Assembly: GCA_045648925.1 (NCBI GenBank) | Contig: JAZROY010000003.1 | Coordinates: forward strand, 57,082-121,081 | Direction of reading: 5' to 3' | Length of the DNA stretch: 64,000 nt | Source of the DNA: Candidatus Enterousia sp. | Lineage (GTDB): Bacteria > Pseudomonadota > Alphaproteobacteria > Rs-D84 | Shown: piece by piece, positions 3,666 through 63,104 of the stretch | How positions within the stretch are numbered: position 1 is the stretch's first letter | Layout: each line of letters starts with the position of its first letter | Translations under genes and position numbers: made by a program | The notes under the pieces: generated by a model | Seen by the model: only the letters and a program-made list of their open reading frames with translations | What the model was told of the DNA's origin: nothing | The model's database searches: none

Positions 3666-4238
3666 ATGATTGGAAAATTGCAAGGTGTAATTGATTATAT
3701 CGGTCCAGATTATGTAATTTTAATGGTTTCGGGTGTTGGGTACAAGGTTTATACACCAGAAATCCTTACCTTGAAATCTACGGTCGCACTTTGGATAGAA
3801 ACAATTGTGCGCGAAGATTCCATACGGTTATTTGGTTTTTCAAGTGTCGCCGGTCAAACATTATTCAATCAATTGACCACTGTTTCTGGTGTTGGACCAA
3901 AGGTTGCAATGGCAATTATGGGCACGATAAAGACGGAAACATTGATGTCTGCAATTGCAACTGGGGATGCAAAAACAATCGCAACCGCCCCGGGTGTTGG
4001 CAAAAAAGTCGCTGAAAAAATCATAGTGGAATTAAAGAATAAAATGGGCGGTGGTGCTTTTGATTTTGGCTCTGATATTGCCACTGGCGCATTACCAGAT
4101 TTACTGGCCGCCCTTGAATCTTTGGGTTATCGCAGGCAAGACATTGTTGATATGGCACAAAAATTGGTATCACAAAACCCCGATGCAAATGTATCAAAAC
4201 TTGTTCCAATGGCATTAAAAGAAATAAGCGGTAAATAA
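3666..4238 (+). CDS. ruvA: Holliday junction branch migration protein RuvA
   Basis: MIGKLQGVIDYIGPDYVILMVSGVGYKVYTP...; HhH motifs (GVGPKVAMAI, APGVGKKVAEKI); 190 aa. Confidence 0.9.
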   Translation: MIGKLQGVIDYIGPDYVILMVSGVGYKVYTPEILTLKSTVALWIETIVREDSIRLFGFSSVAGQTLFNQLTTVSGVGPKVAMAIMGTIKTETLMSAIATGDAKTIATAPGVGKKVAEKIIVELKNKMGGGAFDFGSDIATGALPDLLAALESLGYRRQDIVDMAQKLVSQNPDANVSKLVPMALKEISGK

Positions 4239-4239
4239 T

Positions 4240-5574
4240 ATGAATAACGATACAATTTTCGCATTATCGTCTGCACCTGGGAAATCAGGTGTCGCAGTTA
4301 TCCGCATAAGCGGTAACGATTTATTAAAACTTTTCAAACGAATTGTAAACAACCCCGCCCTTGTGGCGGGGCCGAAACTGCCACGGCAGTTTCGGGGGCG
4401 GGTCATACCCCGTCATGCATATTTTACAAATTTAAAAGATAATAATGGCGATTTAATAGACCAATGTATTGCTATTTATTTTAATGCGCCCCATTCTTTT
4501 ACTGGCGAAGATATTATTGAAATACACAGCCACGGCAGCCCTGCGGTAATAAACAAAATCTTTGACTTTTTACGCGGATTCGGCGCAAGGATTGCAGAAC
4601 GCGGTGAATTTTCCCGGCGCGCTTTTTATAACAATAAAATGGATTTAACTGATGTTGACGGTTTAATTGCCCTGCTTGATGCACAAACAGACAAACAAAG
4701 ACAAAACGCACTGCGTTCATTAACTGGGCACGATTCAAAAATCTATAATGATTGGCGCAATGAAATGATTGAAATATCCGCATACAGTGCGGCGATTCTT
4801 GATTACGACGCGGATGATTTACCAAAAAACATTGATAAAAAAATATTAACAAAAACTAAAAAGTTATTGGACGAAATAAAAAGTTCTGTGTCTGGTTTTC
4901 GTGCATCGCGCGCAATTCAAAATGGATTTAATATAGTTTTGGTTGGTAAAACTAATGTCGGAAAATCTTCCATTTTTAATAAACTGATTGGTTCAAATCG
5001 TGCCATAGTGTCTGATATCGCAGGTACCACACGCGATGTAGTTTCAACGCAATTGGATATTGATGGATATCTCGTCAACCTTTCTGATACGGCAGGAATT
5101 CGGCAATCACGCAACAAAATAGAAAAAATCGGTATTGAAAAAACATTCAACGAAATTGAAAACGCAGATTTGATAATTCATGTATATAACGAAGTTCCAA
5201 AAAAAATCATTGATAATGAAATTACCGTTATAAATAAATCTGATTTATTAAAAAGTAAAAACAATAAAAAAGTTATTTATACATCCGTAAAAACTGGTGC
5301 TGGTTTTGATAAATTATTAAAAGCAATAAAACAAAAAATGCATAACATTTTGGGCAATGGCGAATCAAAGATTACCATAAATGAACGCACTTATGAATTA
5401 CTAAATGAAACAATCACTGAATTGGAAAATGCGATAAAAAAATATAATGGCAATTATGATATCTTTGCCGAACATGTCAGACGCGCATCCGATAACATTG
5501 GTAAAATATTGGGGGTAATTACAACCAACGAAATCGCCGACATGACATTTTCTCGTCTTTGTTTGGGAAAGTAA
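4240..5574 (+). CDS. mnmE: tRNA modification GTPase MnmE (TrmE), carrying an in-frame GC-rich palindromic insertion
   Basis: FALSSAPGKSGVAVIRISG N-domain, G-domain motifs (GKTNVGKSS, DTAG, NKSD), C-terminal CLGK; 444 aa. About 18 extra residues (NPALVAGPKLPRQFRGRV) relative to the E. coli MnmE N-domain. Confidence 0.9.
   Translation: MNNDTIFALSSAPGKSGVAVIRISGNDLLKLFKRIVNNPALVAGPKLPRQFRGRVIPRHAYFTNLKDNNGDLIDQCIAIYFNAPHSFTGEDIIEIHSHGSPAVINKIFDFLRGFGARIAERGEFSRRAFYNNKMDLTDVDGLIALLDAQTDKQRQNALRSLTGHDSKIYNDWRNEMIEISAYSAAILDYDADDLPKNIDKKILTKTKKLLDEIKSSVSGFRASRAIQNGFNIVLVGKTNVGKSSIFNKLIGSNRAIVSDIAGTTRDVVSTQLDIDGYLVNLSDTAGIRQSRNKIEKIGIEKTFNEIENADLIIHVYNEVPKKIIDNEITVINKSDLLKSKNNKKVIYTSVKTGAGFDKLLKAIKQKMHNILGNGESKITINERTYELLNETITELENAIKKYNGNYDIFAEHVRRASDNIGKILGVITTNEIADMTFSRLCLGK
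4351..4404. repeat. GC-rich imperfect palindrome inserted in-frame in mnmE (Rickettsia-palindromic-element-like)
   Basis: aaccccgcccttgtggcggggccgaaactgccacggcagtttcgggggcgggtc: inner perfect palindrome ccgaaactgcc/ggcagtttcgg, outer cccgccc/gggcggg; >65% GC in an AT-rich gene; length a multiple of 3, no stop. Confidence 0.6.
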
Positions 5575-5734: not shown

Positions 5735-7315
5735 TTATTCTTTTCTATCTGGATAAAGCCCTTCAATCAAATTCTTGCGAACTTCGTGATGTTTGATTTT
5801 CTGGGTGCTTGTCATCGGCAAATCTTCCGTTGTCATCGCAAAATGTGTCACCCATTTATATGATGCGACTTTCTTGTTTGCTTCTGCCACAGCGGCTGCT
5901 AATTTTTCCATTGTCATATTCGGTTCCACTTGGAACACACCGTATGCAACGGTTTTATCACCAACCTTGTGTTCAAAGACCGCGACATTTTTTACACCAG
6001 GAATTTCCATAAACAATGCTTCCAATTCATCAGGATAAACATTTTTACCAGAATCCAAAACAATCACTTGTTTTTTACGACCGGCAAAATGTAGTTCGCC
6101 ATTTTTATCCATATACATCATATCCCCAGTATTAAAGAAACCTTTTTCATCAAATACTGTCGCATTAACTTCGTCATTATTAAGATAACCGTTAAACACC
6201 TGATGTCCACGAACCCATAAAATTCCAACACCATTTTCATCTTTATCACGAATTTCACATTCATTATTAGATGTTGGCGCACCAACAGAATAAGGCAATC
6301 TTTTACTTGTCGGTTTGGAAATACAGATTGGTCCCACGGTTTCGGTTAAACCATATCCTTGGATAAATGCAAGACCAAGTGATTCATAAAAATTTTCCAC
6401 TTCTGGCTTGGTTGCTGCGCCACCGGCAATCAGTAATCTTACACGACCACCGAATATATCCAACAATGGTTCTTGGACTTTGCGCACAACAAAATCAAGT
6501 CCCATATCTTTTAATGTCTTTTGATTATTCAAAATGAACGAAGCAACGCGCCATTTTTTTTGTTGTTTCATACCATCAATAATCTTGTTACGGAACAATT
6601 CCAAGACACGCGGAACAACAGGGATAACATGCGGTCTGAATTTCTTGAAATCATCCAAAATGTATTTTGGATTAACGACCGGTTGCAAAACCAAACCACC
6701 ACCATAATGAATTGTCCCGAGTATACATACCGCGAATCCAAAGATATGATAAAGTGGTAAAAAACCATACATAATTTCCCCAGAATGATAATAATCAGAC
6801 ATATCTTCCAAAGAATTTGCACACTCTATTAAATTAAAGTGTGTCAATGGGACAACCTTTGGTGTTCCGGTAGACCCTGATGTAAATGACATAGTCGCAA
6901 TATCTGTTGATTCCGATGGATACGCCCTAAGGTCATAATCTATATCCCCATCTTTGCGTGTAATATCATAAAATTTAAACTTATCTGTTTTATAAAAGAA
7001 CGACGGTTCCGCACAAACAAATTTACAACCTGCGATTTCACACATCTTATCATATTCACGTGGTGTTAAATTTGTATCCAGCATCAACACAGTTGCGCCC
7101 AAATACCACACTGCAAAAAGTGTCAATGGAAACTGTGGCAAATTATGTGACAAAACACCAACAACATCTCCATTTTTTATACCCGCTTTGTTCAAAGAAG
7201 ATGCGCGTGCACGCACTTGATTCAAGAATTCAGAATATGTGATATTTTCACGAACCAAGAACAAATTTTCAGGCCATTGATTCACCGCATTTTCTAACTT
7301 TTGATACATATTCAT
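5735..7315 (-). CDS. AMP-dependent synthetase/ligase (long-chain fatty-acid--CoA ligase-like), paralog 1
   Basis: 526 aa; adenylate-forming motifs TSGSTGTPKVVPLTH, QGYGLTETVGP, TGDmmymdknGelhfaGRKKqvIvldsGkNVYPdElE. Confidence 0.8.
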   Translation of the reverse strand: MNMYQKLENAVNQWPENLFLVRENITYSEFLNQVRARASSLNKAGIKNGDVVGVLSHNLPQFPLTLFAVWYLGATVLMLDTNLTPREYDKMCEIAGCKFVCAEPSFFYKTDKFKFYDITRKDGDIDYDLRAYPSESTDIATMSFTSGSTGTPKVVPLTHFNLIECANSLEDMSDYYHSGEIMYGFLPLYHIFGFAVCILGTIHYGGGLVLQPVVNPKYILDDFKKFRPHVIPVVPRVLELFRNKIIDGMKQQKKWRVASFILNNQKTLKDMGLDFVVRKVQEPLLDIFGGRVRLLIAGGAATKPEVENFYESLGLAFIQGYGLTETVGPICISKPTSKRLPYSVGAPTSNNECEIRDKDENGVGILWVRGHQVFNGYLNNDEVNATVFDEKGFFNTGDMMYMDKNGELHFAGRKKQVIVLDSGKNVYPDELEALFMEIPGVKNVAVFEHKVGDKTVAYGVFQVEPNMTMEKLAAAVAEANKKVASYKWVTHFAMTTEDLPMTSTQKIKHHEVRKNLIEGLYPDRKE

Positions 7316-7370
7316 TTTATACCCCTTTTTATTATCCGGTTATGTCCCCATGTTGTGGGGACACAACAGA

Positions 7371-8951
7371 TTATTCGTGTCTATCTGGATATTTACCTTC
7401 TATTAACCATTGACGCACAACATGATGTTTAATCTTTTGTGTACTTGTCACTGGCAAATCATCAGTTGTCATCGCAAAGTGCGTCACCCATTTATATGAC
7501 GCGACTTTTTTATTAGTTGCAGCCACCGCAGCAGCCAATTTTTCCATTGTCATATCTGGCTCAACAGAAAACACACCGTATGCAACTGTCTTGCCATTTA
7601 TTTCATGTTCAAATACAGCCACACTTTTTACACCTGGTATTTCAATGAACAAACCTTCCAGTTCATCAGGATAGACATTTTTACCAGAATCTAAAACGAT
7701 TACTTGTTTTTTACGACCTGCAAAATGTAGTTCGCCATTTTTATCCATAGACACTAAATCGCCAGTGCAAAAGAACCCTTCTTTATCGAATGCTTCTTTG
7801 TTTGCTTCTTCATTATTTAAATAACCATTTAAAACCTGGTTACCGCGAACCCAAAGCATACCAATACCAGATTCATCTTTATTACGAATTTGAATTTCTG
7901 TGTCACCCATCGGCGCCCCAAAAGCATATGGAACACGTTTTTTTAGTGGCTTTGAACAACAGATTGGTCCAACAGTTTCTGTCATACCATAACCTTGAAC
8001 AAAAGCCATTCCCAGTTGCGTATAGAACTTTTCTACTTCTGGTTTTGTAGCCGCACCACCAGCAACCAAAAGACGTGCACGACCACCAAAAACAGAACGA
8101 ATCTGATTTAATACTTTATCAACCAGTTTGCCTAATCCAATCATACGCAAGAACTTTTGGTTATTCATAATGAAAGATACCAGACCCCATTTTTTCTTTT
8201 GCTTGATACCTTCGATAATTTTTTTGCGGAATATTTCCCACAACTTTGGCACCGCAGGTATAACCTGAGGTTTATATTGCGCAAAATCTGCCATAATTGC
8301 ATTAGGATTAATTGTCGATTGTAATAATATTCCCATACCAAAATGAAGTGGTGCCAAGAATCCAACAGCAAAGCCAAACACATGGTAAAGTGGCAAAAAC
8401 GCATAGAACATTTCACCTGGCTTTAACCATTGATTCAGATATTCCAAATTATCAGAACACGAAACCAAATTAAAGTGTGTTAACGGCACAATTTTTGGTG
8501 TTCCTGTTGAACCAGATGTAAATGATAATGTGGCAATATCTTTATCTTTTAATTGATACGGTTTCAAAGATTCATCTTTTTCTTTATCTTTGGTTTGGAT
8601 ATCAAAAAATTTAAATGCTTTGTTATCGTAAAAGAAAGATTTTTCAGCACACACCAATTTACAATTTGTTAAAAGTGTCATATTGTTATATTCCGCAGAT
8701 GTTAAATTTGTGTCCAACAGCAACACAGTCCCGCCCAAATACCAAATTGCAAAAAGTGTTATTGGAAATTCTGGCAAATTATGTGAAAGCAGCCCAACAA
8801 CATCACCAGGTTTTACCCCTGCTTTTTTTAAACTTGTTGCACGCGCTTTTATCAATTCAGGCATTTGTTCAAATGTCACATTTTCACGGACCAAAAATAC
8901 AGTTTTTGGATTTCTTTTTACATTTTTTTCAAGTAATTCATACATATTCAT
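7371..8951 (-). CDS. AMP-dependent synthetase/ligase (long-chain fatty-acid--CoA ligase-like), paralog 2
   Basis: Same motif set as paralog 1; start placed at MNMYELLEK (8951) by alignment with paralog starts MNMYQKLE / MNMYHFLE; ORF-track start 8960 is 3 codons upstream. Confidence 0.8.
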   Translation of the reverse strand: MNMYELLEKNVKRNPKTVFLVRENVTFEQMPELIKARATSLKKAGVKPGDVVGLLSHNLPEFPITLFAIWYLGGTVLLLDTNLTSAEYNNMTLLTNCKLVCAEKSFFYDNKAFKFFDIQTKDKEKDESLKPYQLKDKDIATLSFTSGSTGTPKIVPLTHFNLVSCSDNLEYLNQWLKPGEMFYAFLPLYHVFGFAVGFLAPLHFGMGILLQSTINPNAIMADFAQYKPQVIPAVPKLWEIFRKKIIEGIKQKKKWGLVSFIMNNQKFLRMIGLGKLVDKVLNQIRSVFGGRARLLVAGGAATKPEVEKFYTQLGMAFVQGYGMTETVGPICCSKPLKKRVPYAFGAPMGDTEIQIRNKDESGIGMLWVRGNQVLNGYLNNEEANKEAFDKEGFFCTGDLVSMDKNGELHFAGRKKQVIVLDSGKNVYPDELEGLFIEIPGVKSVAVFEHEINGKTVAYGVFSVEPDMTMEKLAAAVAATNKKVASYKWVTHFAMTTDDLPVTSTQKIKHHVVRQWLIEGKYPDRHE

Positions 8952-8980
8952 TTTTATCACCTTTTCTTAACTTTTAATAA

Positions 8981-10561
8981 TTATTCATGTCTGTTCGTAT
9001 ATTTACCATCTATTAAATTCTGACGAACAATATGATGTTTAACTTTCTGGGTACTGGTCATCGGCAAATCTTCGGTTGTCATCGCAAAGTGTGTAACCCA
9101 TTTATAAGATGCAAGTTTCTTATTAGCACTCGCAACTTCTTTTGCCAGTTTTTCCATTGTCATATTGTCTTCAACAGAAAACACACCATAAGTGACTGTT
9201 TTACCCTTGACCTTGTGTTCGAACACAGCGACATTTTTGACACCTGGAATTTCCATAAACAATGCTTCCAGTTCATCAGGATAAACATTTTTACCAGAAT
9301 CCAAAACAATCACTTGTTTTTTACGACCAGCAAAATGGTATTGATTATTTTTATCCAAATATACCAAATCGCCCGTATTAAACCAGCCATCTTTATCAAA
9401 CAGTTCTTTGTTCGCGACATCATTATTCAAATAACCACGGAATATATTTGGACCACGAACCCATAACGTGCCAATACCTTTGTCATTGACATCCCTGATT
9501 GTACATTCAGAACATCCGATTGGTGTTCCAAACGCAAACGGCACGCGATGTTTCACTGGTCTTGAACAACAAAACGGTCCGACTGTTTCGGTTAAACCAT
9601 AGCCCTGAATAAAAGCCACCCCAAGCGATTCATAGAAACTTTCCACTTCTGGCTTAGTCGCAGCACCACCAGCAATCATTAAACTGACACGACCACCAAA
9701 GATATCAAGTATTGGTTTTTGTACCCGATGCACCAACCAACCCAAACCGATATGTTTCAAAGTTTTTTGGTGTTTCAACACAAATGATACAAACCACCAC
9801 ATGTGTTTTGCTTTGATACCTTCGATAATTTTGTTACGAAAAACCTCCCAAAGACGGGGAACCGCGGGGATACAGTGCGGTTTATAGTTTTTAAAATCAT
9901 CCAAAATATTTTTTGGATTTATTGTCGGCTGTAATAAAATTCCCATATGAAAATGCATAGGTGCCAAAATACCAGCCGCAAAACCAAAGACATGGTAAAG
10001 CGGTAAAAAACCATACATTATTTCATTTTTGTGAATCCATTGCCCCATTTCCGCATAACAATCAGACGATGTCTTTAAATTACCATGCGTTAACGGAACA
10101 ACCTTTGGGTTGCCTGTTGAACCAGATGTAAAAGACATTGTAGCGATATCATCACTTGATGTTTTTGCGGGTTTAATTTTTGTATCTGCTTTGGTATCTT
10201 TGGTTTCTATATCAAAGAATTTAAAATTCTTGGTCTTATAGAAGAAAGATTTTTCTGCACATACAAACTTGCACCCAACTATCTTGGTCATATTATCGTA
10301 TTCAAACGGGGTTAAATTTGTGTCCAACAACAACACAGTCCCGCCCAAATACCAAATTGCGAAAAGAGTCACAGGAAATTCTGGAATATTATGCGCCAAT
10401 AAACCAACAACATCGCCAGGTTTGACACCGGCATTATACAAAGTAGTCGCCCGCGCATGGATTAGTTTCAGAACATCTTTGAATGTGATTTTTTCGCGTA
10501 CCAAATACAAAGCATTTGGCGATTCTTGCGCCACCTGCTCTAAAAAATGATACATGTTCAT
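8981..10561 (-). CDS. AMP-dependent synthetase/ligase (long-chain fatty-acid--CoA ligase-like), paralog 3
   Basis: 526 aa; TSGSTGNPKVVPLTH, QGYGLTETVGP; C-terminal 60 aa nearly identical to paralogs 1 and 2. Confidence 0.8.
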   Translation of the reverse strand: MNMYHFLEQVAQESPNALYLVREKITFKDVLKLIHARATTLYNAGVKPGDVVGLLAHNIPEFPVTLFAIWYLGGTVLLLDTNLTPFEYDNMTKIVGCKFVCAEKSFFYKTKNFKFFDIETKDTKADTKIKPAKTSSDDIATMSFTSGSTGNPKVVPLTHGNLKTSSDCYAEMGQWIHKNEIMYGFLPLYHVFGFAAGILAPMHFHMGILLQPTINPKNILDDFKNYKPHCIPAVPRLWEVFRNKIIEGIKAKHMWWFVSFVLKHQKTLKHIGLGWLVHRVQKPILDIFGGRVSLMIAGGAATKPEVESFYESLGVAFIQGYGLTETVGPFCCSRPVKHRVPFAFGTPIGCSECTIRDVNDKGIGTLWVRGPNIFRGYLNNDVANKELFDKDGWFNTGDLVYLDKNNQYHFAGRKKQVIVLDSGKNVYPDELEALFMEIPGVKNVAVFEHKVKGKTVTYGVFSVEDNMTMEKLAKEVASANKKLASYKWVTHFAMTTEDLPMTSTQKVKHHIVRQNLIDGKYTNRHE

Positions 10562-34353: not shown

Positions 34354-34428
34354 TGGCGGCGTAGCTCAGTGGTAGAGCAGAGGAATCATAATCCTTTGGT
34401 CAGGGGTCCGAATCCCTTCGCCGCTACC
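34354..34428 (+). tRNA. tRNA-Met (anticodon CAU), elongator type (could alternatively be tRNA-Ile2 read with lysidine)
   Basis: Acceptor ggcggcg/cgccgct (G1-U72), D arm gctc-agtggta-gagc, anticodon loop atCATaa, T arm, CCA encoded; lacks the initiator hallmarks. Confidence 0.8.
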
Positions 34429-34759
34429 AAAATAACAAACGACCTTTGTGGTCGTTTTTTATTTTGATATCTGGGATTTGGACACCGGCACAGGGGTCCG
34501 ACCCGCAGCAAAAAGGCGGAATAACGCCGGTTTGCCGTCAGGCAAATTTTGCAAGGGAGTGAAGCGCAGCGAAACAATCCCTTCGCCGCTACCAAAATAA
34601 TAAATGACCCTTGTGGTCATTTTTTATTTTGATATCTGGGATTTGGACACCGGCACAGGGGTCCGACCCGTAGCAAAAAGGCGGAATAACGCCGGTTTGC
34701 CGTCAGGCAAATTTTGCAAGGGAGTGAAGCGCAGCGAAACAATCCCTTCGCCGCTACCA
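34429..34759 (+). repeat. Two tandem ~166-bp units (34429-34594, 34595-34759), each = terminator hairpin + GC-richer structured body + exact copy of the last ~20 nt of tRNA-Met
   Basis: The units are >90% identical; each ends ...gcagcgaaacaatcccttcgccgctacca, reproducing the tRNA T-arm/acceptor 3' end. Internal hairpins gggtc-c-gaccc, ggcg-gaataa-cgcc, tttgcc-gtcag-gcaaa. Confidence 0.85.
34436..34462 (+). terminator. Intrinsic terminator immediately after tRNA-Met; a second copy sits inside repeat unit 2
   Basis: acgacc-tttgt-ggtcgt + T6. Confidence 0.6.
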
Positions 34760-51945: not shown

Positions 51946-54900
51946 TTACAAAGTAGTCAACCAAGATAAATCTGATGAACACAATAATCCAAGTTGTTTA
52001 TCACTTTTATAAATTGCTTCTTTGAATAATATATTTTTTTCTGTTAATTTTGACTTTAACATTGACCAGGTTTCTTGTTCCCCTATACGATTCATATCAT
52101 CCAATAAAATTACAAAAGATTTATCCAGATTATCAACAATATCCAATATTTCTGGTCTGGAATAATGTGCACTACCCAAAGGTCCATCAATCATCACAAG
52201 ATTAAATTTTTTACCTTTGATAACTGATTCAAAACCTTTATAAGTTCTAGATTCATGCTCAGGAACAATATGTACCATTTCAGTATCCAAAATTTTTGTA
52301 TATTTATCAGCTGTGGGAAATTGAAGTTTAAAGAACGACAACCAATCTTGGTTATTTTCACAAATCATCAACTTTGCTTTATATGCATCAGCATATTGAA
52401 TTGTTAATTTAGAACTTTGACCAAGTCCACACTCTAATATAGATTGTGGTTTAATTTCATCTAGTATTCTAAACAAAACATATAAAACAATATACGACAC
52501 TGCCCAGCGACCAGGCGATACAGATTTATCTTTTAACCAAACGCTGTTTAATATAGTATCATGATAAACATTTGCCCAATAAGGTTCCATGTTTAATAAA
52601 GAAAATTTATGTTGAACATTGATAAAAAAATCTTGCATATTTTTCATACTAATTTCATGCTGTTTATTAATACAATCCAATTGTAAATTCAATTGCAAAT
52701 TCAATTCGTTAATATGCTTTTCCAACTTATCTATACTACTACGCGTGCTGTGAGAATACATAACTTGTTTTATATGTCTTCTAAATTTTGCCAAAGGCAA
52801 AGAAACAACATTCATCCATACGGTTGCGAGCAAGTAATACGGGAATAAAACATAACTTTTTACATGATTATCTTTGTACAAAAATGCTAATTTAGATTTA
52901 TCATATCGTTTTAATAAATGTTTCATATCTTTGATATATAACTTTTTATCTGTCTGATCCAGCTTTACAAAATCATTCACCAGAATTCCTAAATACGAAT
53001 TCACATAATTATTGAATGTTTTTTTATTTATTTTACACTGTTTCAAATACCCAAGAAGTATATCTGTTATTTTCAAAAAATCCGCAAAATGGTGATTCCG
53101 AGTTTGTGTTGTAGATTTAGGATGTAATCTACGACAATACAATTTCTCATTTAATATTCCACACGCAGATGCCTTGGTTAACCCTTTGACAAAGAAAACA
53201 TTGTCTTCGAAAAAAAGTTCTTCTGGAAATTGTAAATTATTTTTTTCTATAAAAGAATGTTTATAAATTGTTAAACATGTTGATACAGCCATTAAATGTG
53301 CAAAATCTAAACAATCTTTAAACGAAAAAACTGTCTTGTTCCAATTTTGTGGTAAATAATTAAAATCCCAAAGTTTATTTGGTTCCATAATATCTGTTCC
53401 ATCTTTAAAATTTCTACCACTGAACATCAACATATCTAAATTGTTTTTATTTGCATATGTATATAATTTTTCAATAGCATTTAATTGCAGATAGTCATCA
53501 GAATCTACAAATTGAATATAATGACCTTTGGCTATATTTAAAGCTTGATTTCTTGCAGTTCCTTGTTTTCTATTAACACGATTATCTATTACTTTTATTC
53601 TAGAATCTTTATCAGCATATTTTTTAATGATATTCAATGAATTATCTGTTGAACCATCATTTACACAGATAATTTCAATATTTTTCTCTGTTTGATTAAT
53701 AACAGAATCTAAACATTTTTCTAAATATTTTTCTGTATTATAAACAGGTATTATAACAGAAACTTTTACATCATAGGATTCATTGTTATTTGACTGTAAT
53801 ATTTTATTCTTTTCAATATATTCATTTGGATTATTCATAATCATTTGTAAATCAGACCATTGATTATTGTTGAAATATTTTTTATCAATATCACCATGTT
53901 TTTTGTGTTGTTTAAATTCTTTACCAATGGCTGTTAAATATTCCGGCCAATATTCAACATCCAAACGCGCAATCATATGATAAATATACGCATTAAATTT
54001 ACGCAAAAAATAAACAGGAAGCAATTTAGCCACTTTTTTATGTTTCGCAAATATATTATCAATAAAATGATATTCATTTGGAATTGTCCAAACATTATTC
54101 TTTTTCTTTATAGACTGATTTGGATTATCTTGGCGGTAACAATAAAATACACAGTTCATAAAATATACTTTATCTGCCAAATATGTTGTTTGTGCCCAAA
54201 AACCATTATCTTGATATGCAGCCCCAGGGGTTTCATTATGACGGATTTTATATTTATCCAAAAAGGAATGTTTAAATATTCCCGCTGGATTAATAGCAAA
54301 AATATACAATATTTTTTCATCTTTTTCGGGTGTTAAAACACGGTTATAAAAACTCTCTGGCGCATTAAATACTTTTTTATTTGTATATCTATATTGTTTG
54401 TTTTCACCTGTAAATTCACAATAATCAGCCTTGATAACATCCAAATCTAATTCTTTTGCCTTATTATATAATGTTTCATACATATCAGGTTTAATAAAAT
54501 CATCAGGTTCAACAATACCAATATATTCACCGCACGCTAAATCAATACCACAATTCATTGTTTGACCATAACCTGCATTTGGTTTATCGATATATTTAAC
54601 ACGTTTGTCTTTATCAGCATATTCTTTAATGATATTCAATGAATTATCTGTTGAACCATCATTAACACAAATAATTTCAATATCTTTTAATGTCTGATTA
54701 ACAACGCTGTCCAAACATTCACGTAAATAAGGTTCCGCATTATAAATTGGCAGAACAACTGAAACTTTTGGTGACTCTTTCATAATATCTTTTCGAAACA
54801 TATAAGATTTATCTGGCTCATAAAAATATTTTGTATCATATAAGTGACGATATATATCCAAATCATACACCAGTTTATTTTGTAAATCGTTTAAAAGTTT

Positions 54901-55845
54901 GCTTTTTACCTCTACATCTTTAATTGAATTGTAATTATATAAAGCTCCAGACAAAACACAATTTACAAAAGATTGTTCATAAATATCGTATATTTTCATC
55001 TTCTGTAATTCTTTCTTTACAGACATTGATGCTGTATACCAATCCAAAGGACTTTTATGGTTATTAGACTGTAAACTGCTATTATTTCCAACACGATAAT
55101 GCCCTAAACATTCTTGTATAACAGACATTCTTTTTGCTTTTACCAGTGCCATAAAGACAAAGTATAAATCATTTGTTCTTGATAAAGATTGAAAATACAA
55201 TTTATTAGCTTTAATAAAATTATGATTAAACATTTTATTCCATGGCCAACTACACGAAAAATTAAAAATGTATTTTGAAATATCTTGTGCAGAAAACACG
55301 TCATTATTTGGCATATACTTGTTTGACAGCAACCAATTTTGTGGGGAATATTTTTTTGAACCGGTATCATACGCATCTGTTCTATAAATAACAATATCCA
55401 AATTTTTGTTTGTCGCCAAAGAATATGCATTTTTTAACATATTTAACTCAAAAAAATCATCACTATCTAAAAAAGATAAATACTCACCTTTAGCAACAGC
55501 AAGACCTGCATTACGGGCAACACCAGCATATAAATTTTTTTGCGTAATAACTGTAATTCTATTATCTTTTTTTGCATATTCTTTCAATATTTCCAGAGAA
55601 TTATCAGTTGAACCATCGTCAACACAAATTATTTCAATGTCGTGTAAAGTTTGATTTACTATTGAATCTAAACATTCGCGCAAATATTGTTCAACATTAT
55701 AAACAGGAATAATCACAGAAACCTTTGGGATATAATCAATCTTGTTTTGAATCAAAATAGTAGCATCAGTATCTTTGATACCATCCGCATTTCGCACACT
55801 AATCATGGCATGTTTTTTTGTTTGCTTTGTTTCTGTTTTTTTCAT
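51946..55845 (-). CDS. Multidomain glycan synthase: three tandem GT2 glycosyltransferase modules + coiled-coil segment + C-terminal class-I SAM-methyltransferase-like domain
   Basis: 1299 aa. GT2 signature (VSV[IV]IPVYN.E.YL..CLDS..NQT...IE[IV]ICV[DN]DGSTDNSL.I[LI]KEYA.KD.R[IV]) occurs three times (~aa 43, ~365, ~694), each with a DxD downstream (LDSDD / VEPDD / VDSDD). Coiled coil SSIDKLEKHINELNLQLNLQLDCINKQ. C-terminal ILECGLGQSS...LVMIDGP resembles MTase motif I / post-I. Confidence 0.75.
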   Translation of the reverse strand: MKKTETKQTKKHAMISVRNADGIKDTDATILIQNKIDYIPKVSVIIPVYNVEQYLRECLDSIVNQTLHDIEIICVDDGSTDNSLEILKEYAKKDNRITVITQKNLYAGVARNAGLAVAKGEYLSFLDSDDFFELNMLKNAYSLATNKNLDIVIYRTDAYDTGSKKYSPQNWLLSNKYMPNNDVFSAQDISKYIFNFSCSWPWNKMFNHNFIKANKLYFQSLSRTNDLYFVFMALVKAKRMSVIQECLGHYRVGNNSSLQSNNHKSPLDWYTASMSVKKELQKMKIYDIYEQSFVNCVLSGALYNYNSIKDVEVKSKLLNDLQNKLVYDLDIYRHLYDTKYFYEPDKSYMFRKDIMKESPKVSVVLPIYNAEPYLRECLDSVVNQTLKDIEIICVNDGSTDNSLNIIKEYADKDKRVKYIDKPNAGYGQTMNCGIDLACGEYIGIVEPDDFIKPDMYETLYNKAKELDLDVIKADYCEFTGENKQYRYTNKKVFNAPESFYNRVLTPEKDEKILYIFAINPAGIFKHSFLDKYKIRHNETPGAAYQDNGFWAQTTYLADKVYFMNCVFYCYRQDNPNQSIKKKNNVWTIPNEYHFIDNIFAKHKKVAKLLPVYFLRKFNAYIYHMIARLDVEYWPEYLTAIGKEFKQHKKHGDIDKKYFNNNQWSDLQMIMNNPNEYIEKNKILQSNNNESYDVKVSVIIPVYNTEKYLEKCLDSVINQTEKNIEIICVNDGSTDNSLNIIKKYADKDSRIKVIDNRVNRKQGTARNQALNIAKGHYIQFVDSDDYLQLNAIEKLYTYANKNNLDMLMFSGRNFKDGTDIMEPNKLWDFNYLPQNWNKTVFSFKDCLDFAHLMAVSTCLTIYKHSFIEKNNLQFPEELFFEDNVFFVKGLTKASACGILNEKLYCRRLHPKSTTQTRNHHFADFLKITDILLGYLKQCKINKKTFNNYVNSYLGILVNDFVKLDQTDKKLYIKDMKHLLKRYDKSKLAFLYKDNHVKSYVLFPYYLLATVWMNVVSLPLAKFRRHIKQVMYSHSTRSSIDKLEKHINELNLQLNLQLDCINKQHEISMKNMQDFFINVQHKFSLLNMEPYWANVYHDTILNSVWLKDKSVSPGRWAVSYIVLYVLFRILDEIKPQSILECGLGQSSKLTIQYADAYKAKLMICENNQDWLSFFKLQFPTADKYTKILDTEMVHIVPEHESRTYKGFESVIKGKKFNLVMIDGPLGSAHYSRPEILDIVDNLDKSFVILLDDMNRIGEQETWSMLKSKLTEKNILFKEAIYKSDKQLGLLCSSDLSWLTTL

Positions 55846-55846
55846 T

Positions 55847-57013
55847 TTATTTCCCTATAATTTTATTAAATGTTTCAAACGCACCTTGGATTGTTCGATT
55901 CATATCATAATATCTGTATGCACCCAATCTGCCTAAGAAATATACATTTGATAATTTTTTTGCTTCTTCGAAATATCTATCATAAATTGCTTGGTTTGTT
56001 GGATTTAATATTGGATAAATTCGTTCGTTTTTGCCATTTTCAAAATCTTCTGGATATTCAAAAGTCAATACAGTTTTGTCTGATTTTTCATTTAAAAACC
56101 ATTTGTTTTCTGTAATTCTTGTAAAATCATAATTTTCAGGATAATTTACAACTGCAGCATTTTGAAAATGTGACACATTAAATGTTTCTATTCTTATATC
56201 CAAACTGCGATACGGTAATTTACCAAACTTGTAATCGAAATATTCTTCTATGGCGCCAGTATAAAATAGACGCTTGTATTTTATTGATTTTTTCAGTTTT
56301 TCAAAATTTGTATTCAACATTACACTTATATTTGGGTGTGCCAACATACGTTCAAACATCACAGTATAACCATCACGTGGAATTCCTTGAAACCGTTCTT
56401 GGAAATAACGACTATCGCGACCGATAAATACTGGGACAGAACCCGTAACAGATGGATCTAGTTGTTCTGGACTTAATCCCCATTGTTTAAGGGTATAGTT
56501 TAAAAATACTTTTTTATAAATGTAATCAGCCAAAAAGTTTAAATCTTCATCGTTTGTTTTACGTAATTCCAGAATAGGAACCTTGGTATTAAAACCAAAC
56601 TTTGCAATTAATTTTCCTTCTAATTTATTTGCCAAAGTTTCTGGCAACGCACGATGTAAAGAATCTAGATTAAACGGAATTGGAACTTCTATACCGTCAA
56701 TTATACCAAGAACGCGATGCATAAATGGATTCCAAGTCGTATATTTAGATAAAAAATTCCATACTTCTGTAGAATTAGTTCTGAAAATGTGGGGGCCATA
56801 TTTATGAACATGAATGCCTGTCTCATTGTCAATATAATCAAAACAAGTGCCGCCAATATGGTCTTTCTTGTCAATAATCACAACAGGTTCATTTAATTCC
56901 GTAGCGATTTTGTTTGCCATTACTATTCCAGATAACCCACACCCAACAATAAAATTCGTATTCTCATTTACAGAACTAGTATCTGATATGTATCTTACAT
57001 TTTGCTTTACCAT
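55847..57013 (-). CDS. glf: UDP-galactopyranose mutase
   Basis: 388 aa; FAD motif FIVGCGLSGIVMA, Glf-like throughout, canonical length. Confidence 0.85.
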   Translation of the reverse strand: MVKQNVRYISDTSSVNENTNFIVGCGLSGIVMANKIATELNEPVVIIDKKDHIGGTCFDYIDNETGIHVHKYGPHIFRTNSTEVWNFLSKYTTWNPFMHRVLGIIDGIEVPIPFNLDSLHRALPETLANKLEGKLIAKFGFNTKVPILELRKTNDEDLNFLADYIYKKVFLNYTLKQWGLSPEQLDPSVTGSVPVFIGRDSRYFQERFQGIPRDGYTVMFERMLAHPNISVMLNTNFEKLKKSIKYKRLFYTGAIEEYFDYKFGKLPYRSLDIRIETFNVSHFQNAAVVNYPENYDFTRITENKWFLNEKSDKTVLTFEYPEDFENGKNERIYPILNPTNQAIYDRYFEEAKKLSNVYFLGRLGAYRYYDMNRTIQGAFETFNKIIGK

Positions 57014-57195
57014 AACACAACCCCATCATTTACTATTTTTAATTTGTCTGATTTTATCTTTTAACCTGTGGTATTTATTGTGAACTTTTATTGGATATTT
57101 AAAAAATCTTAAATCACAAATATGTCTTATAAAATGCATGTTTGTTTCCTTTGTCTTATTTTCAGATTTTTTCATGCTTTAAACATTATTATGGG

Positions 57196-57224
57196 AATTT
57201 TAGCAATAAAAAATAAATAATGCA
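57196..57224 (-). promoter_or_regulatory. Candidate sigma70-type promoter (TTGCAT-17-TAAAAT) for the glf / multidomain GT operon
   Basis: Minus strand ttgcat (57224-57219), 17-nt spacer, taaaat (57201-57196), within a 317-bp AT-rich intergenic region upstream of glf. Confidence 0.35.
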
Positions 57225-57330
57225 AGCCGGCCGCAAAAACTATTTAACAATGAAAATTAAAGGTTTATACCGGGTTTATTCATACAATCAGTGTAATAAT
57301 TTGAACATAAAATACATATAAATTTTACAA

Positions 57331-58374
57331 CTATCTCTTATAACTTAAAATTTTTATTCCACAAAAATACACATGTATTCTACCATTTGAACAATATTCT
57401 TTTGCGAATAAGAAATTTCTTTTAATTACAGAATCTGGCGCAAAATGTAATTTATAACTAAGAAATTTTATTCCAAATATATAAAATTTATGGCGTCCAT
57501 TTATAAAAGTATGTTTAAAAACAAAACTTAATATATATCTAACAATACTTGTTTTAATTTGATAACAGTTATTATACTTGTCCCATAAAGCACTGCCAGG
57601 GGCACCCTCAGAATTCCAAGGTTTCTTTTTATTTGTTAAATGTAAAATTACAGGTTTTTTTAATATTTTTTCTATATCTTTTTCTTGATAAAAATCAGAA
57701 ATTTCATTGTCTGGATAATCTAAATTTTGTACCATACAATTATATTTCAAAGAAACATATATAACATTTTCATTAAACACCTGATTCAAAGCATCTTGGT
57801 CCATAAAGTGTTTATATTTATCATGTTTTTTTGCATAAAGTAATTTATCAGTACTATTATTTTCGCGCATTTTTTTTAAATTTAACAACATCATACCAGA
57901 ATTAAAATATTTATCTATCCCCAGTTTTAGATGATGTTTTTCATTAACCATTGCTTTCATATCAGTAACAACCGCAGCATATTTTCCATTTAAATTTGTA
58001 CTATACAAATCATATAAATCACCTAAAATTAACATATCTCCATCTAAATATAAAATTTTATCCAAATCCGGAAACATATTTGGTAAATTAAATTTTAACA
58101 TTGCGGCTTTACTTACATGCTGATGTGTTGTTTGAATATCAGAATAAATATTTTCAGTATTTATTACATATATATTTACATTGTGCTCTTTTAATTTCTT
58201 AAATTTATTTATTATCTTTTCAGCCACATCAACAGCAATAATATAGATATTATACATTGTGTCTTTTTTACAATTTTCAATCAAAGATTCAATAGCCACA
58301 CCCGTAGGAACCGCATAATTTGTATCAGTTATAAAACAAATATTTACTGTTCTTTTCATTTTTTTATTTTTCAT
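57331..58374 (-). CDS. Glycosyltransferase family 8 (LPS alpha-1,2/1,3-glycosyltransferase-like)
   Basis: 347 aa; N-terminal VNICFITDTNYAVPTGVAIESL, DxD (YLDGDMLILGD), HxxGxxKPW (HLTNKKKPW). Confidence 0.65.
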   Translation of the reverse strand: MKNKKMKRTVNICFITDTNYAVPTGVAIESLIENCKKDTMYNIYIIAVDVAEKIINKFKKLKEHNVNIYVINTENIYSDIQTTHQHVSKAAMLKFNLPNMFPDLDKILYLDGDMLILGDLYDLYSTNLNGKYAAVVTDMKAMVNEKHHLKLGIDKYFNSGMMLLNLKKMRENNSTDKLLYAKKHDKYKHFMDQDALNQVFNENVIYVSLKYNCMVQNLDYPDNEISDFYQEKDIEKILKKPVILHLTNKKKPWNSEGAPGSALWDKYNNCYQIKTSIVRYILSFVFKHTFINGRHKFYIFGIKFLSYKLHFAPDSVIKRNFLFAKEYCSNGRIHVYFCGIKILSYKR

Positions 58375-59293
58375 AAGTTTTTATAATATCAGATATTGTT
58401 TGTTGTAATGTATATTTTTGATTCCATCCTAATTCTTTTTTTAATTTAGTGTTATCCCCAATAACCGAAGAAATTTCGTTAGCACGAATACGCGATGAAT
58501 CTATAATTATATTTGGTTTGATATTTAATTCCTTTGCAGTTGTGTTTATTATATCGCGCAATTTAACCCCTTGACCACTGCATACATTATAAACACTGCG
58601 ATTTTGCGCATTTTTAATTATTAAATAATACGCATTAACAACATCACGAACATCTGTAAAATCACGAACCACATCAATATTACCAACCATCATTTTATTT
58701 TCGCTTTTTCCTTTTGATATATTCACCAACTGTTCAATAAAAGATGGTATAACAAAACGAGTATTTTGACGCGGACCAATATGATTAAAAGAACGTGTCA
58801 TTACAATATCCATATTAAAATTATCAACATATAATTTTGACATATATTCTTGTGATAAACGAGCAACTGAATACGGACTTTTTGGATGTAAATTTAAATC
58901 TTCAGTCATTGGGTTATCATATATTCCGTATTCTTCAGACGAACCAACAGATAAAATTCTTGTTTTTAATTTATTATTACGCACAGCATCAGCCAAATTC
59001 AAAAATGCCGACATATTATTCATAAAACAATTTGCTGGTTCTTTCCAACTTTGTGCCACAGAAGACATAGCAGCTAAATGAACAATATAATCAGGTTTCA
59101 AAGACCTTACTATCCTGTTTACCTGTTCATTATCCATCAGATTCAAAGATCTGTATTTAATATTCATGTCACATTTTGGTGTTATATCAATTCCATATAT
59201 TTTTGATTCAGGTTCTTTTTCATTAAGATATTCTACAAAATATCTTCCAACAAAGCCCATAACACCTGTTATTAAATACTTACTCATATACAC
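58364..59293 (-). CDS. rmd: GDP-4-dehydro-6-deoxy-D-mannose reductase (Rmd-like, GDP-D-rhamnose forming)
   Basis: 309 aa SDR; GVMGFVGRY, YSVARLSQEY; block-wise similarity to Pseudomonas Rmd (RSFNHIGPRQ..FVIPSF, GNIDVVRDFTDVRDVVNAY, VYNVCSGQGVKLRDII); adjacent to gmd. Confidence 0.65.
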   Translation of the reverse strand: MYMSKYLITGVMGFVGRYFVEYLNEKEPESKIYGIDITPKCDMNIKYRSLNLMDNEQVNRIVRSLKPDYIVHLAAMSSVAQSWKEPANCFMNNMSAFLNLADAVRNNKLKTRILSVGSSEEYGIYDNPMTEDLNLHPKSPYSVARLSQEYMSKLYVDNFNMDIVMTRSFNHIGPRQNTRFVIPSFIEQLVNISKGKSENKMMVGNIDVVRDFTDVRDVVNAYYLIIKNAQNRSVYNVCSGQGVKLRDIINTTAKELNIKPNIIIDSSRIRANEISSVIGDNTKLKKELGWNQKYTLQQTISDIIKTYEK

Positions 59294-59301
59294 TACCTTT
59301 A

Positions 59302-60351
59302 TTATCTTTGAGGTTGTTTCAGCGTTTTTTCCATTTTTACCAATTTTAAATCTTCAGCAACCATTTCTTGTGCCAAAGTTTTCCAAGTATATGTTGGTTT
59401 CCAGCCCAATTGAGTTCTTGCCTTTGTTGAATCACCTAATAACAAATCAACTTCGGCTGGACGGAAGAATTGTGGGTCCACAGCGACAACAGTTTTACCA
59501 GTTTTTTTATCAACTGCCTTTTCATTAACACCATTGCCAGACCATTCTAAATCAAAACCAGCTTCTTTAAAAGCAACCTTTACAAAATCACGAATAGATG
59601 TAGTAACACCTGTGGCCAAAACATAATCCGATGGTTTTTCTGCTTGTAATATACGCCACATACCTTCGACATAATCTTTGGCATGACCCCAATCGCGTTT
59701 GGAATCCATATTCCCAAGATATAAACAATCTTGAAGACCTTCTTTGATTCTGGCTGCTGCTAATGTAATTTTGCGTGTCACAAAATTATCACCGCGTCTT
59801 GGACTTTCATGATTAAACAAAATACCATTGCACGCAAATATGCCATAAGATTCACGATAATTCACAGTAATCCAATAACCATATAATTTAGCCACACCAT
59901 ACGGAGAACGCGGATAAAACGGTGTTTTTTCAGACTGAATTGGTTCTTGAATTAAACCAAATAACTCAGATGTAGATGCCTGGTAAAATCTTGTTTTTTT
60001 ATCCAACCCATTTGTATGGATTGCCTCTAATAAACGCAAAACACCAATCGCGTCAGATTCTGCAGTAAATTCTGGACAATCCCATGATATTTTAACATGT
60101 GATTGTGCAGCCAAATTATAAACTTCATCTGGTTGTAATTGACGAACTAAATTATTTAAATTTGTAGAATCTGTCATATCACCATAATGCAAATGTATTT
60201 TATCAGATATATGGTCTATTCTTTGTGTATTCGGTACAGAAGCACGACGAACAATACCATGAACTTCATAACCTTTACCCAATAACAATTCTGCCAAATA
60301 TGAACCATCTTGTCCTGTAATACCTGTAATCAAAGCAACTTTTTTTGTCAT
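59302..60351 (-). CDS. gmd: GDP-mannose 4,6-dehydratase
   Basis: 349 aa; [38 protein letters not shown] is the canonical Gmd N-terminus; YGVAKLY catalytic motif. Confidence 0.9.
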
Positions 60352-60368
60352 ATCCTACCTTTTTATTA

Positions 60369-61616
60369 TTAATTTTCCTGATTAATTGTTTTTATGATTA
60401 TATCAACTGTATTTTCCCAAGAAAACAGTCCACTCCTTTTTAAACCTTTCTTTGCCATTTCGTCACGATATTTTTTATCCATATAATATTTTTCATATGC
60501 AGCGATATGTTGTTCATCACTGTCCCAATCTATCATAATTCCAGCATCACCAACAACCTCTGGCAAAGATGAATTATTTGATGTAATTACCGGACATCCA
60601 CACTTCATTGCTTCCAATGGTGGCAAACCAAAACCTTCGTATTGACTGGTATAAACAAAAAATTCTGCACCACTATAAAGTGCAGCCAAATCTTCATCAT
60701 CTATATAACCAGCACGAATAATTTTATCTTTATATTTACCCAAATCTTTTATCTCTTGTTCTAATTTACCAATAAATTCATCCCAATGCGCACCACCAAG
60801 AACAAATACCATATCATCAATTTTATTCTTTTTGATAAATTCTATAAATGTCTTAACAGCACGAATCAAATTTTTACGTGGCTCTAATGTACATAAACTG
60901 AATACATATTTTTTATCTGTTGGTATATTATATTTTTTACAAACTTGTTTTATTTTATTTTTATCTTTTTCTTGATAAAAATTATCACTTGCTGCCAATG
61001 GCATAATAGTTATATCATCTGGATTCATATTTAATAATCTAACAAAATCATTTTTACAAGATTGCGATATAGCAAAATATTTACAGTTTGGTTTAGATTT
61101 AATATATTTTATCAAGTGATAAAACCAATGTTGTTTTGATAAATAATATTCTGGAATTAACAAAGGTATTGTATCATATAAAACAATATATTTATGTGTT
61201 GCTTTCACTTTTTTAGACATATATGTCCATGCGGAAAAAGCAATATCAAAAGTCGGTAATTTAACAAATTTTCCAATAAATCTTACAGGTTTTCTAACGA
61301 GTATATTTAACAGTAATTTTAAAATATTATGTTTTTTATTACGCAATTTTGCATCTAAAACTTGCATTTTTGCCAAAAACATTCCACAACGATTGCCAAA
61401 ATAAATTTTAACATTTTCCCCAAAATTATTTTTTATAAAATTTGCAAATTTTTCATTATACATAGTATCACAATACAAAGATACATCAAATTCATTAGAT
61501 TTAAAAATATGTTTTAATATATTAAATTCTGTAAAAAATATCCCTGTTCTACCACGTTCTGCCATATAACTTTCAGCAATAATAGTCGCATCAAAAAGTA
61601 ATGTTTTATTTTTCAT
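60369..61616 (-). CDS. Glycosyltransferase family 4
   Basis: 415 aa; [20 protein letters not shown]4 (GT-B) signature. Confidence 0.75.
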
Positions 61617-61624
61617 ATCAATAC

Positions 61625-62635: not shown

Positions 62636-62699
62636 ATTAAACCTATTTGAACCACAGGCTAGGATTTTAGACTATAAAATACGATAAATCAAGTATTTA

Positions 62700-62740
62700 T
62701 AAGAAAAACACCCCTTCCGGGGTGTATTTTTATTTTTAAT
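62700..62740. terminator. Intrinsic terminator separating the tail-fibre-like genes from the glycan operon
   Basis: acacccc-ttcc-ggggtgt hairpin with T/A runs on both sides; sits just downstream (minus sense) of the 118-aa gene stop. Confidence 0.6.
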
Positions 62741-63092: not shown

Positions 63093-63104
63093 AACTTTAC
63101 TCCT

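Follow-up and report, generated by a model that had tools for sequence, protein, structure and literature searches.

We analysed a 64,000-nucleotide stretch of Candidatus Enterousia sp. (contig JAZROY010000003.1, positions 57,082 to 121,081; hereafter the window, with coordinates counted from its first letter), in which the mnmE gene, encoding the tRNA modification GTPase, carries a short GC-rich palindromic element. An earlier reading made from the letters alone (the sequence-only reading) had placed this element at 4351-4404, and it is indeed found there. The segment is 72% GC, compared with 35% for the whole window, and 4353-4402 is the most GC-rich 50-mer of the window (76% GC; 50-mer median 34%, 99.9th percentile 64%). 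The element lies in frame and free of stop codons within the mnmE open reading frame (ORF). Homologues 76-99% identical to the window protein carry the Pfam domains TrmE_N, MnmE_helical and MMR_HSR1, and the window protein itself matches the solved MnmE/TrmE structures 1xzp (E 1e-68) and 9hip (E 5e-66). The features at the locus are as follows.

3666-4238, forward strand: ruvA, directly upstream of mnmE
4240-5574, forward strand: mnmE, 444 aa, intact in the list of ORFs, with the insert after codon 37
4353-4410, forward strand: 58-nt block standing for the 16 nt AAAGAAATTTGATACG of the empty allele (DNA alignment with the insert-free loci L001 and L002, and protein alignment)
4353-4371, forward strand: first hairpin (SL1) of the predicted folds, with a pyrimidine-rich 5' arm CCCCGCC (4353-4359), a loop CTTGT (4360-4364) and a purine-rich 3' arm GGCGGGG (4365-4371)
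4372-4395, forward strand: second hairpin (SL2), a perfect 10-11 bp palindrome CCGAAACTGCC-AC-GGCAGTTTCGG, unusually long within the repeat family described below
4395-4402, forward strand: G-rich tail GGGGCGGG, of which GGGGCGG (4395-4401) mirrors the SL1 3' arm GGCGGGG (reversed, not complemented)

Structure of the element

The inner palindrome, with its arms at 4372-4382 and 4385-4395, is perfect and gave 0 matches in 100 shuffles. The outer CCCGCCC/GGGCGGG pair is also present in the element. The two pairs had been described as a nested palindrome; both exist, but the nested architecture did not hold, and the minimum-energy fold consists of two tandem hairpins (4353-4371 and 4372-4395) followed by the mirror tail. 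The predicted free energy was -43.1 kcal/mol when the element was folded as RNA and -24.7 kcal/mol when it was folded as DNA. In both cases z was -4.3, with none of 200 shuffles as stable.

The insert and the MnmE loop

The empty mnmE site has the sequence ATTATAAACAAAAAGAAATTTGATACG. Exchange of 16 nt for the 58-nt block results in a net gain of 42 nt and 14 aa, with NPALVAGPKLPRQFRGRVIP in place of KKKFDT. At the protein level the window reads RIVN-NPALVAGPKLPRQFRGRVIP-RHAYF, and most of the 120 closest MnmE proteins (430 aa) read RIIN-KKKFES-RHAYF. The extra peptide is therefore at the predicted spot but is somewhat smaller than the 15-18 residues that had been proposed, amounting to 14 aa when compared with the closest orthologue and to 13-14 aa against the solved T. 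maritima and E. coli MnmE.

The solved MnmE/TrmE sequences show a gap of 13-14 residues at the position of the insert. In an AlphaFold model of moderate quality (mean predicted local distance difference test score, pLDDT, of 66), residues 39-51 have a pLDDT below 50 and lie between a helix (28-36) and a strand (60-66). Such a location would suit a surface loop of the N-terminal domain in which extra residues are tolerated, in agreement with the sequence-only reading.

Occupied and empty alleles

Orthologous loci were recognised by the synteny secB / yebC / ruvA / mnmE / three AMP-binding genes. Two of them, L001 and L002, are 98.4-99.1% identical to the window over the flanking ~15 kb and 97.2% identical across the rest of mnmE, and this identity places them in the same species as the window. 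Both are without the insert and carry the short ancestral NKKKFDT loop. Among the 120 closest MnmE orthologues, 99 have no insert, and the remaining 21 have one at this site, adding 6 to 17 aa and falling into at least five sequence types. The presence/absence polymorphism suspected beforehand was thus seen in the ortholog alignment, with occupied and empty alleles within one species.

The difference between the alleles extends beyond the element itself, over the following region.

4345-4494, no strand: recombination patch, comprising the insert and ~85 nt downstream (list of positions differing from the insert-free strain)

Between 4416 and 4494 the window and the insert-free strain differ by 17 substitutions (~21% divergence), compared with ~1.4% elsewhere. 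Because these substitutions are clustered after the insert, the alleles differ by a mosaic patch of ~150 nt rather than by a clean indel. A second pair of loci, L003 (occupied) and L014 (empty), is 100% identical on either side of a sharply bounded block of 76 nt in the former and 49 nt in the latter, which holds the element together with 33 nt of diverged upstream flank. These are short gene-conversion patches, by which the element passes from strain to strain. On a tree of the remaining MnmE sequence, the insert state is scattered: near-identical MnmE backbones differ in it (the window and P0006, P0016 and P0024, P0063 and P0079), and one insert allele, FSPSGGVRHSRRGVEP, was found on distant MnmE backbones.

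The 5' junctions of the inserts are not all alike. The window reads AAC AA|CCCCGCC, L003, L007, L008 and L011 read ATA|TTC, and L006 and L009 read ATAAG|TTC. From these differences we infer more than one integration or rearrangement event at the A-rich stretch of mnmE.

One lineage (P0067) carries a further GC-rich, family-like insert in frame in the G domain of mnmE (L010:1519-1570, …RVVTAGDRGG…).

A dispersed repeat family

All mnmE inserts have a common architecture of SL1, a variable SL2 and a G-rich tail, except that L009 is without SL2. The SL1 arm types among them include CCCCGCC/GGCGGGG, CTCCCCC/GGGGGAG, CCCCTCT/AGAGGGG and CCACCCC/GGGGCGG. The same architecture defines a dispersed repeat unit of ~40-55 nt, which usually begins with 5' TTC and continues with an SL1 of 7-10 bp with a C/T-rich 5' arm, a loop that is often (C)TTG(T) and a G/A-rich 3' arm. 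An SL2 hairpin of variable sequence follows and a purine tail comes last.

Besides the copy in mnmE, L003 has at least eight others of that type, which lie on both strands and within 1 kb downstream of the gene, and L014 carries one copy of the L003-type repeat. A metagenome scan for the L003 insert type gave 113 loci with 141 pattern-matching copies, 97 of them distinct. Most of these loci are rumen-type contigs of 34-50% GC, and some copies lie hundreds of kb apart on the same 325-347 kb contigs. SL2 varies in a compensatory manner, its stem types including GCGGC/GCCG, GGCGC/GCGCC, GGCAC/GTGCC, GCCGTC/GACGG, GCCC/GGGC and ACCCCG/CGGGG. Copies occur singly, in head-to-tail arrays (45-50 nt spacing, with subfamilies mixed) or as inverted doublets. 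None of the 141 copies was within a real gene; apparent in-ORF copies proved spurious, being stop-free runs across arrays or gene 5' leaders. In rumen Alphaproteobacteria the family is abundant between genes. The copies are preceded by an A-rich 5' flank, in which A makes up 55-58% of positions -3 to -1, and evidence for a target-site duplication was not convincing, since duplicated flank k-mers numbered 14 against 11.5 in permutations for k=2 and 14 against 7.4 (maximum 15) for k=3.

The same loci contain further subfamilies, B to F. Among the intergenic copies, subfamily A corresponds to the mnmE insert of L003, B to those of L008 and L011, D to that of L007 and F to those of L006 and L009; for the further subfamilies the agreement is in SL1, SL2 and tail. 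We built a covariance model (R1) from 13 intergenic copies of the B and C types only, and searched it against the mnmE inserts. L008 scored 62.9 bits, L011 52.3, L007 28.7 and L003 21.6, with E values from 7e-13 to 7e-3. These scores support the assignment of the same-site inserts of related strains to the dispersed intergenic family as significant members.

Relatives of the unit are also found in other bacteria. Plasmids of Sinorhizobium, Rhizobium and Shinella, 170 in all, carry a GC-rich relative, TTCTCCCCCCTTGTGGGGGAGATGGCCGGCAGGCCAGAGGGGG, at 763 places without annotation; it has the same architecture and the CTTGT loop of the window copy. Its assignment to a named S. meliloti repeat class was not confirmed, as literature searches on the repeat sequence and on descriptions of RIMEs (Rhizobium-specific intergenic mosaic elements) gave no usable result. 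Of 5426 complete E. coli genomes, 5137 contain a unit ...CCCCTCTGGGGAGAGGGTTAGGGTGAGGGG, located near a DUF559 gene (L404); the median number of places is four, and the unit is unannotated.

Probable family membership of the window copy

The window element has the architecture of the family unit: a CCCCGCC/GGCGGGG hairpin, an SL2 of 10-11 bp and the mirror tail GGGGCGG. Its SL1 and tail are identical to those of the L011 insert (52 bits), and its SL1 arms are also identical to those of L008 and of the intergenic subfamily-B copies. The CTTGT loop recurs in Sinorhizobium and Sphingobium copies. Finally, the SL2 base CGAAAC...GTTTCG is found in three unrelated units, namely the seed wf1_Contig538 of the Rfam motif whalefall-1 and both copies of locus L355. 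The latter was the only true unit among 120 loci recovered when viral contigs were scanned for CGAAACT...AGTTTCGGG, the rest being mostly noise. Three points make it likely that the window copy belongs to the family: its insertion site is that of significant members, its SL1 and tail are those of L011, and its SL2 base recurs in three unrelated units. With its long SL2 it probably belongs to a subfamily with the SL2 base CGAAAC...GTTTCG.

The mirror tail

Across subfamilies the tail repeats the SL1 3' arm in mirror order, reversed but not complemented, with the non-G base shifting accordingly. The arm/tail pairs are GGGGGAG/GAGGGGG, GGGGAAG/GAAGGGG, GGAGGGG/GGGGAGG, GGCGGGG/GGGGCGG or GGGGAGG, and GGGGCGG/GGCGGGG or GGTGGGG. 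When 127 distinct units were compared, an arm G faced a tail G in 93% of positions and an arm A faced A or T in 88%. Such a tail is unable to form Watson-Crick pairs with SL1. G facing G and A facing A or T are the triads of an antiparallel purine-motif triple helix. These rules suggest that in single-stranded DNA or RNA the tail may fold back onto SL1 and form a triplex of the purine motif.

A scan of viral contigs for CCCCGCC hairpins found a mirror tail at 56 loci and a direct tail at 85, and this pattern was set aside as non-specific in GC-rich DNA. Since simple hairpins with a mirror or direct tail are non-specific in such DNA, the evidence for the mirror rule is the covariation between subfamilies and not the counts from scans.

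Association with DUF559 nuclease genes

In L355 two units in inverted orientation flank a 122-aa ORF. Homologous ORFs adjoin units, and are often bracketed by them, in seven rumen loci. These ORFs all belong to DUF559 (Pfam PF04480; E 1e-26 to 3e-33), a very common family for which we know of no function. DUF559 genes bracketed by inverted or direct copies of the hairpin-plus-mirror-tail unit are located as follows.

L256:5495-5950
L355:4147-4635
L400, L401, L403, L405 and L406 (PLSDB loci)

We then considered eight DUF559 genes on annotated replicons, chosen without regard to repeats. By eye, units were present within a few hundred bases of all eight. Doublets lie on both sides of the S. meliloti and Sinorhizobium sp. 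genes, an inverted pair with the CTTGT loop accompanies the Sphingobium gene, units lie on both sides of the N. gonorrhoeae gene, an inverted pair was found in Deinococcus proteolyticus, and units lie near the Azospirillum, Methylobacterium and E. coli genes. A strict detector found 11 units in 4.8 kb of DUF559 flanks (in 5 of the 8 loci), compared with 1 in 983 kb of unrelated loci. These comparisons show that DUF559 genes are associated with the repeat family, and the association spans Alpha-, Beta- and Gammaproteobacteria and Deinococcus.

A 14-fold enrichment of DUF559 proteins has been reported independently for the targets of predicted programmed inversions, i.e. they are flanked by inverted repeats (PMC9881135). 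The VSR/DUF559/DUF2726 clade has homing endonucleases among its members, one from a group I intron and others that are free-standing and belong to fractured genes (PMC3424549, PMC2677866). Our literature search found no paper linking DUF559 to REP-like repeats (REP, repetitive extragenic palindrome). With its gene bracketed by inverted copies in many phyla, a DUF559 (Vsr-like PD-(D/E)xK) nuclease is a candidate for the mobilising or homing enzyme, and the association suggests an undescribed nuclease-plus-repeat selfish system.

Origin of the mnmE element

In our judgement 4353-4402, inserted in frame in mnmE, very probably represents a solo, non-autonomous member of a family of small structured DNA repeats that are GC-rich and widespread. 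The sequence-only reading had likewise proposed an in-frame selfish palindromic repeat of a distinct, shorter family, and the match of same-site inserts to the intergenic family and the empty alleles within the species bear this out. Starting from the demonstrated insertion, its polymorphism, the family with its structural covariation and intergenic habit, and the recombination patches, the following course is the most likely. A unit resembling REPs and bacterial interspersed mosaic elements (BIMEs), possibly mobilised or homed in trans by a DUF559 nuclease, would enter the A-rich N-K-K-K-x codons of mnmE and replace about five of them in frame, with the product being translated and tolerated. 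The insert would survive because it is in frame and in a loop. It would then segregate as an optional allele, gained or lost through short homologous-recombination patches centred on the element.

Several observations weigh against this explanation or parts of it. Although the window copy is the top R1 match on both strands of the 64 kb, it scores only 11.8 bits (E 0.9); the low score arises because its longer SL2 (10-11 bp) is treated as an insertion. Recurrence of the core palindrome elsewhere, which the sequence-only reading had made a test of its proposal, was not found: the SL2 core is unique in the window and in 2.2 Mb of collected loci, and in a collection of species-representative genomes it occurs only in mnmE of the rumen metagenome-assembled genome (MAG) RUG11635, as a single copy. 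The query of that scan, the SL2 core, is too specific, since SL2 varies between copies. The window holds no other family copy and no DUF559 gene. At the mnmE junctions 15-16 nt have been replaced, and the lack of a clean insertion prevents reconstruction of the original integration event. Three subfamilies have the identical junctions ATA|TTC ... GGGTT|GAACC, and one old insertion followed by ectopic conversion therefore fits as well as repeated targeted insertion. The protein search recovers in-frame alleles only, which makes it partly a matter of ascertainment that all inserts are multiples of three. The triplex is putative, as are the nuclease activity and target of DUF559, and the DUF559 association could stem from repeats accumulating around the gene for another reason.

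Other explanations were weighed against the same data. Selection could have acted on the hairpins as RNA rather than as mobile DNA, for example because they pause ribosomes, affect mRNA stability or serve as a regulatory switch; they would be either a cis-acting structured RNA in the mnmE mRNA or an embedded small RNA of the whalefall-1 type. This would fit the very stable fold (z = -4.3), the compensatory changes in SL1 and SL2 across variants, a full-length match to whalefall-1 (RF01762; 27.5 bits, E ~1e-5 locally), the SL2 base shared with seed wf1_Contig538 and the reported transcription of S. meliloti REP elements and repeats (PMC2873474). We consider it improbable, because 27.5 bits is below the gathering score of 37 and other family copies are without a whalefall-1 match, such units are found on either strand, in arrays and at unrelated sites between genes, and most orthologous mnmE genes work without the insert. 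In addition, L005 has lost two SL2 pairs, L009 has no SL2 at all, and the mirror tail cannot form Watson-Crick pairs with SL1. Somewhat less probable again is that the palindrome was made on the spot, independently in several lineages and with no transfer from repeats, by template switching or quasi-palindrome errors at a fragile A-rich site. The perfect SL2 palindrome unique to the lineage, the A-tract at the site, and the lack of a target-site duplication or a clean junction would all be expected of such an origin. It does not account for the near-identity of the L003, L008, L011 and L007 inserts to intergenic copies (22-63 bits against a model built without them), for the match of the window SL1, loop and tail to the family, or for the recurrence of the window SL2 base in three unrelated contexts.

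We give very little weight to a lineage-specific protein loop kept for MnmE function, with GC richness and palindromy being incidental. The reading frame is kept in all variants, and the peptides have a common P...G-(R/G)-V-x-P frame; against this, occupied and empty alleles coexist at ~98.6% genome identity, the peptides differ widely between types while the DNA hairpins and mirror tail are kept, the loop is predicted to be disordered and the same DNA units are mostly non-coding. The element is almost certainly neither a true Rickettsia palindromic element (RPE) nor a classical miniature inverted-repeat transposable element (MITE). An insert lying in frame in a housekeeping gene, in an alphaproteobacterium with an AT-rich genome, is an RPE signature (review PMC10969869), but the unit is ~50 nt long as opposed to ~100-150 bp, the host is a rumen MAG of free-living type with type IV pili and capsule genes, and the organisation is REP/BIME-like. 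A MITE was rejected for want of terminal inverted repeats with a target-site duplication. All of these alternatives fit the data worse than the repeat family.

We put forward more tentatively, as a possibility short of an even chance, that it is the non-autonomous form of an undescribed, phylum-spanning selfish DNA, the autonomous unit of which would be a ~115-aa DUF559 nuclease gene bracketed by inverted mirror-tail repeats (with a candidate foldback R*R-Y triplex). If true, the REP problem would have a second solution, one independent of RAYTs (REP-associated tyrosine transposases), and DUF559 would gain a function. The Rfam whalefall-1 'sRNA' would then be reinterpreted as a repeat of this type, and homing-like conversion would account for the polymorphism of mnmE. 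New biology could lie in two of the findings, the rule of the mirror tail and the association with DUF559.

That palindromic repeats colonise conserved genes in frame is textbook knowledge only for Rickettsia. Here the same process is seen in gut Alphaproteobacteria of free-living type and with a much smaller, REP-like unit. The within-species polymorphism and the mapped patches make gain and loss traceable in population data, and two questions become directly testable, namely the role of DUF559 and the upkeep of REP-like repeats without RAYTs.

Other features of the loci

The flanks of mnmE vary among strains, with repeat arrays, unknown ORFs, a type IV pilus/type II secretion system block or, between ruvA and mnmE, a subtilase gene. 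The variable regions are as follows.

L003:11325-13400
L014:8256-14429
L007:8776-10008
L011:11373-11915
L005:4360-5016

A (GT)n microsatellite of ~20 units lies beside an unknown 240-aa ORF in L003 (13168-13207) and is a candidate phase-variable tract. Downstream of mnmE, at 5735-10500 of the window and in the syntenic loci, all strains have three tandem 526-aa AMP-binding (acyl-CoA synthetase-like) paralogues, which are ~73% identical to one another in DNA. The yebC gene of L005 (1486-2376; 296 aa compared with 238 aa) was considered as a second in-frame insert and rejected, as it contains an internal tandem duplication of 58 codons, which is either a real variant or an assembly artefact of a strain mixture.

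Elsewhere in the window, two intergenic direct repeats of ~75 nt (34469-34544 and 34635-34708; 64-66% GC, 166 nt apart) follow a tRNA gene (34355-34426) immediately downstream. No Rfam family matches these repeats, which may be att-like or degenerate RNA genes. GC content falls from ~35-38% to 27-31% at 52001-64000, which may be an island or a region of the surface-polysaccharide type.

Comparison with known systems

The mobile GC clusters of yeast mitochondria are short GC-rich palindromes of an AT-rich genome that occur as optional in-frame inserts in var1 and spread by gene conversion. Theirs is an organellar system of unrelated sequence, and we know of no associated nuclease gene flanked by clusters. 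The mnmE alleles also resemble those of Vsr-like homing endonucleases in using the same site, in their presence/absence and in their co-converted flanks, and patches of ~150 nt (window and L001) and 76 nt (L003 and L014) in otherwise 98.6-100% identical DNA represent a homing-type signature. The difference is that no DUF559 gene lies beside mnmE or in the window, whereas the known homing endonucleases sit inside the element they spread.

Whalefall-1 was rejected as the identity of the element on account of its sub-threshold score and because the match is not general to other copies (none for L003 and L177, 19 bits for L026). It is kept as the closest described motif, since it too has a purine tail (AGGGUGAGGAC or AGAGGGAGGAC) after two hairpins in tandem, is intergenic and often forms inverted pairs ~50 nt apart; its seed wf1_Contig538 shares CGAAACU...AGUUUCGGG with the window element. 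It was described from whale-fall metagenomes only as a non-coding RNA gene, and not as a DNA repeat (Weinberg et al. 2010, PMC2864571). Intergenic palindromic repeats have been annotated in S. meliloti (PMC2573895). The rhizobial repeats (RIMEs, Sm-repeats and the AB and C palindromes of Sinorhizobium meliloti) resemble the window copy in the TTCTCCCCCCTTGTGGGGGAGATGGCCGGCAGGCCAGAGGGGG architecture and the CTTGT loop, but they are reported as intergenic only, whereas the mnmE element is intragenic.

RPEs (RPE-1 to RPE-10) are likewise palindromic repeats found in frame in housekeeping genes of an AT-rich alphaproteobacterium, translated, tolerated and polymorphic between relatives (PMC10969869). 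The kinship to RPEs suggested at the outset holds as a likeness in kind, while identity with them fails on size, host and REP/BIME-like organisation. RPEs of ~100-150 bp are often intragenic (44 gene insertions in R. conorii), in contrast to a unit of ~50 nt in a 58-nt block, 0 of 141 sampled family copies in genes other than mnmE, and an architecture of hairpin, hairpin and mirror tail.

The family as a whole resembles REPs, BIMEs and REPINs (REP doublets forming hairpins), with which it shares a short GC-rich imperfect palindrome, many intergenic copies, mosaic arrays, inverted doublets and the lack of a target-site duplication. As in REP/RAYT systems, a single small gene is bracketed by inverted copies, and DUF559 genes occupy the position of the RAYT. 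In a weak test, tblastn with IS200- and RAYT-like queries gave no match to a Y1 (HUH)/RAYT transposase in the examined loci. The GTAG/CGTC tag of REPs is absent at the hairpin foot, where the 5' end is TTC (AAC in the window), and the 64 kb hold a single copy, though the family has many. REPs are usually species-specific; this family differs from them in having a mirror-repeat tail, a PD-(D/E)xK nuclease gene and a distribution across several phyla.

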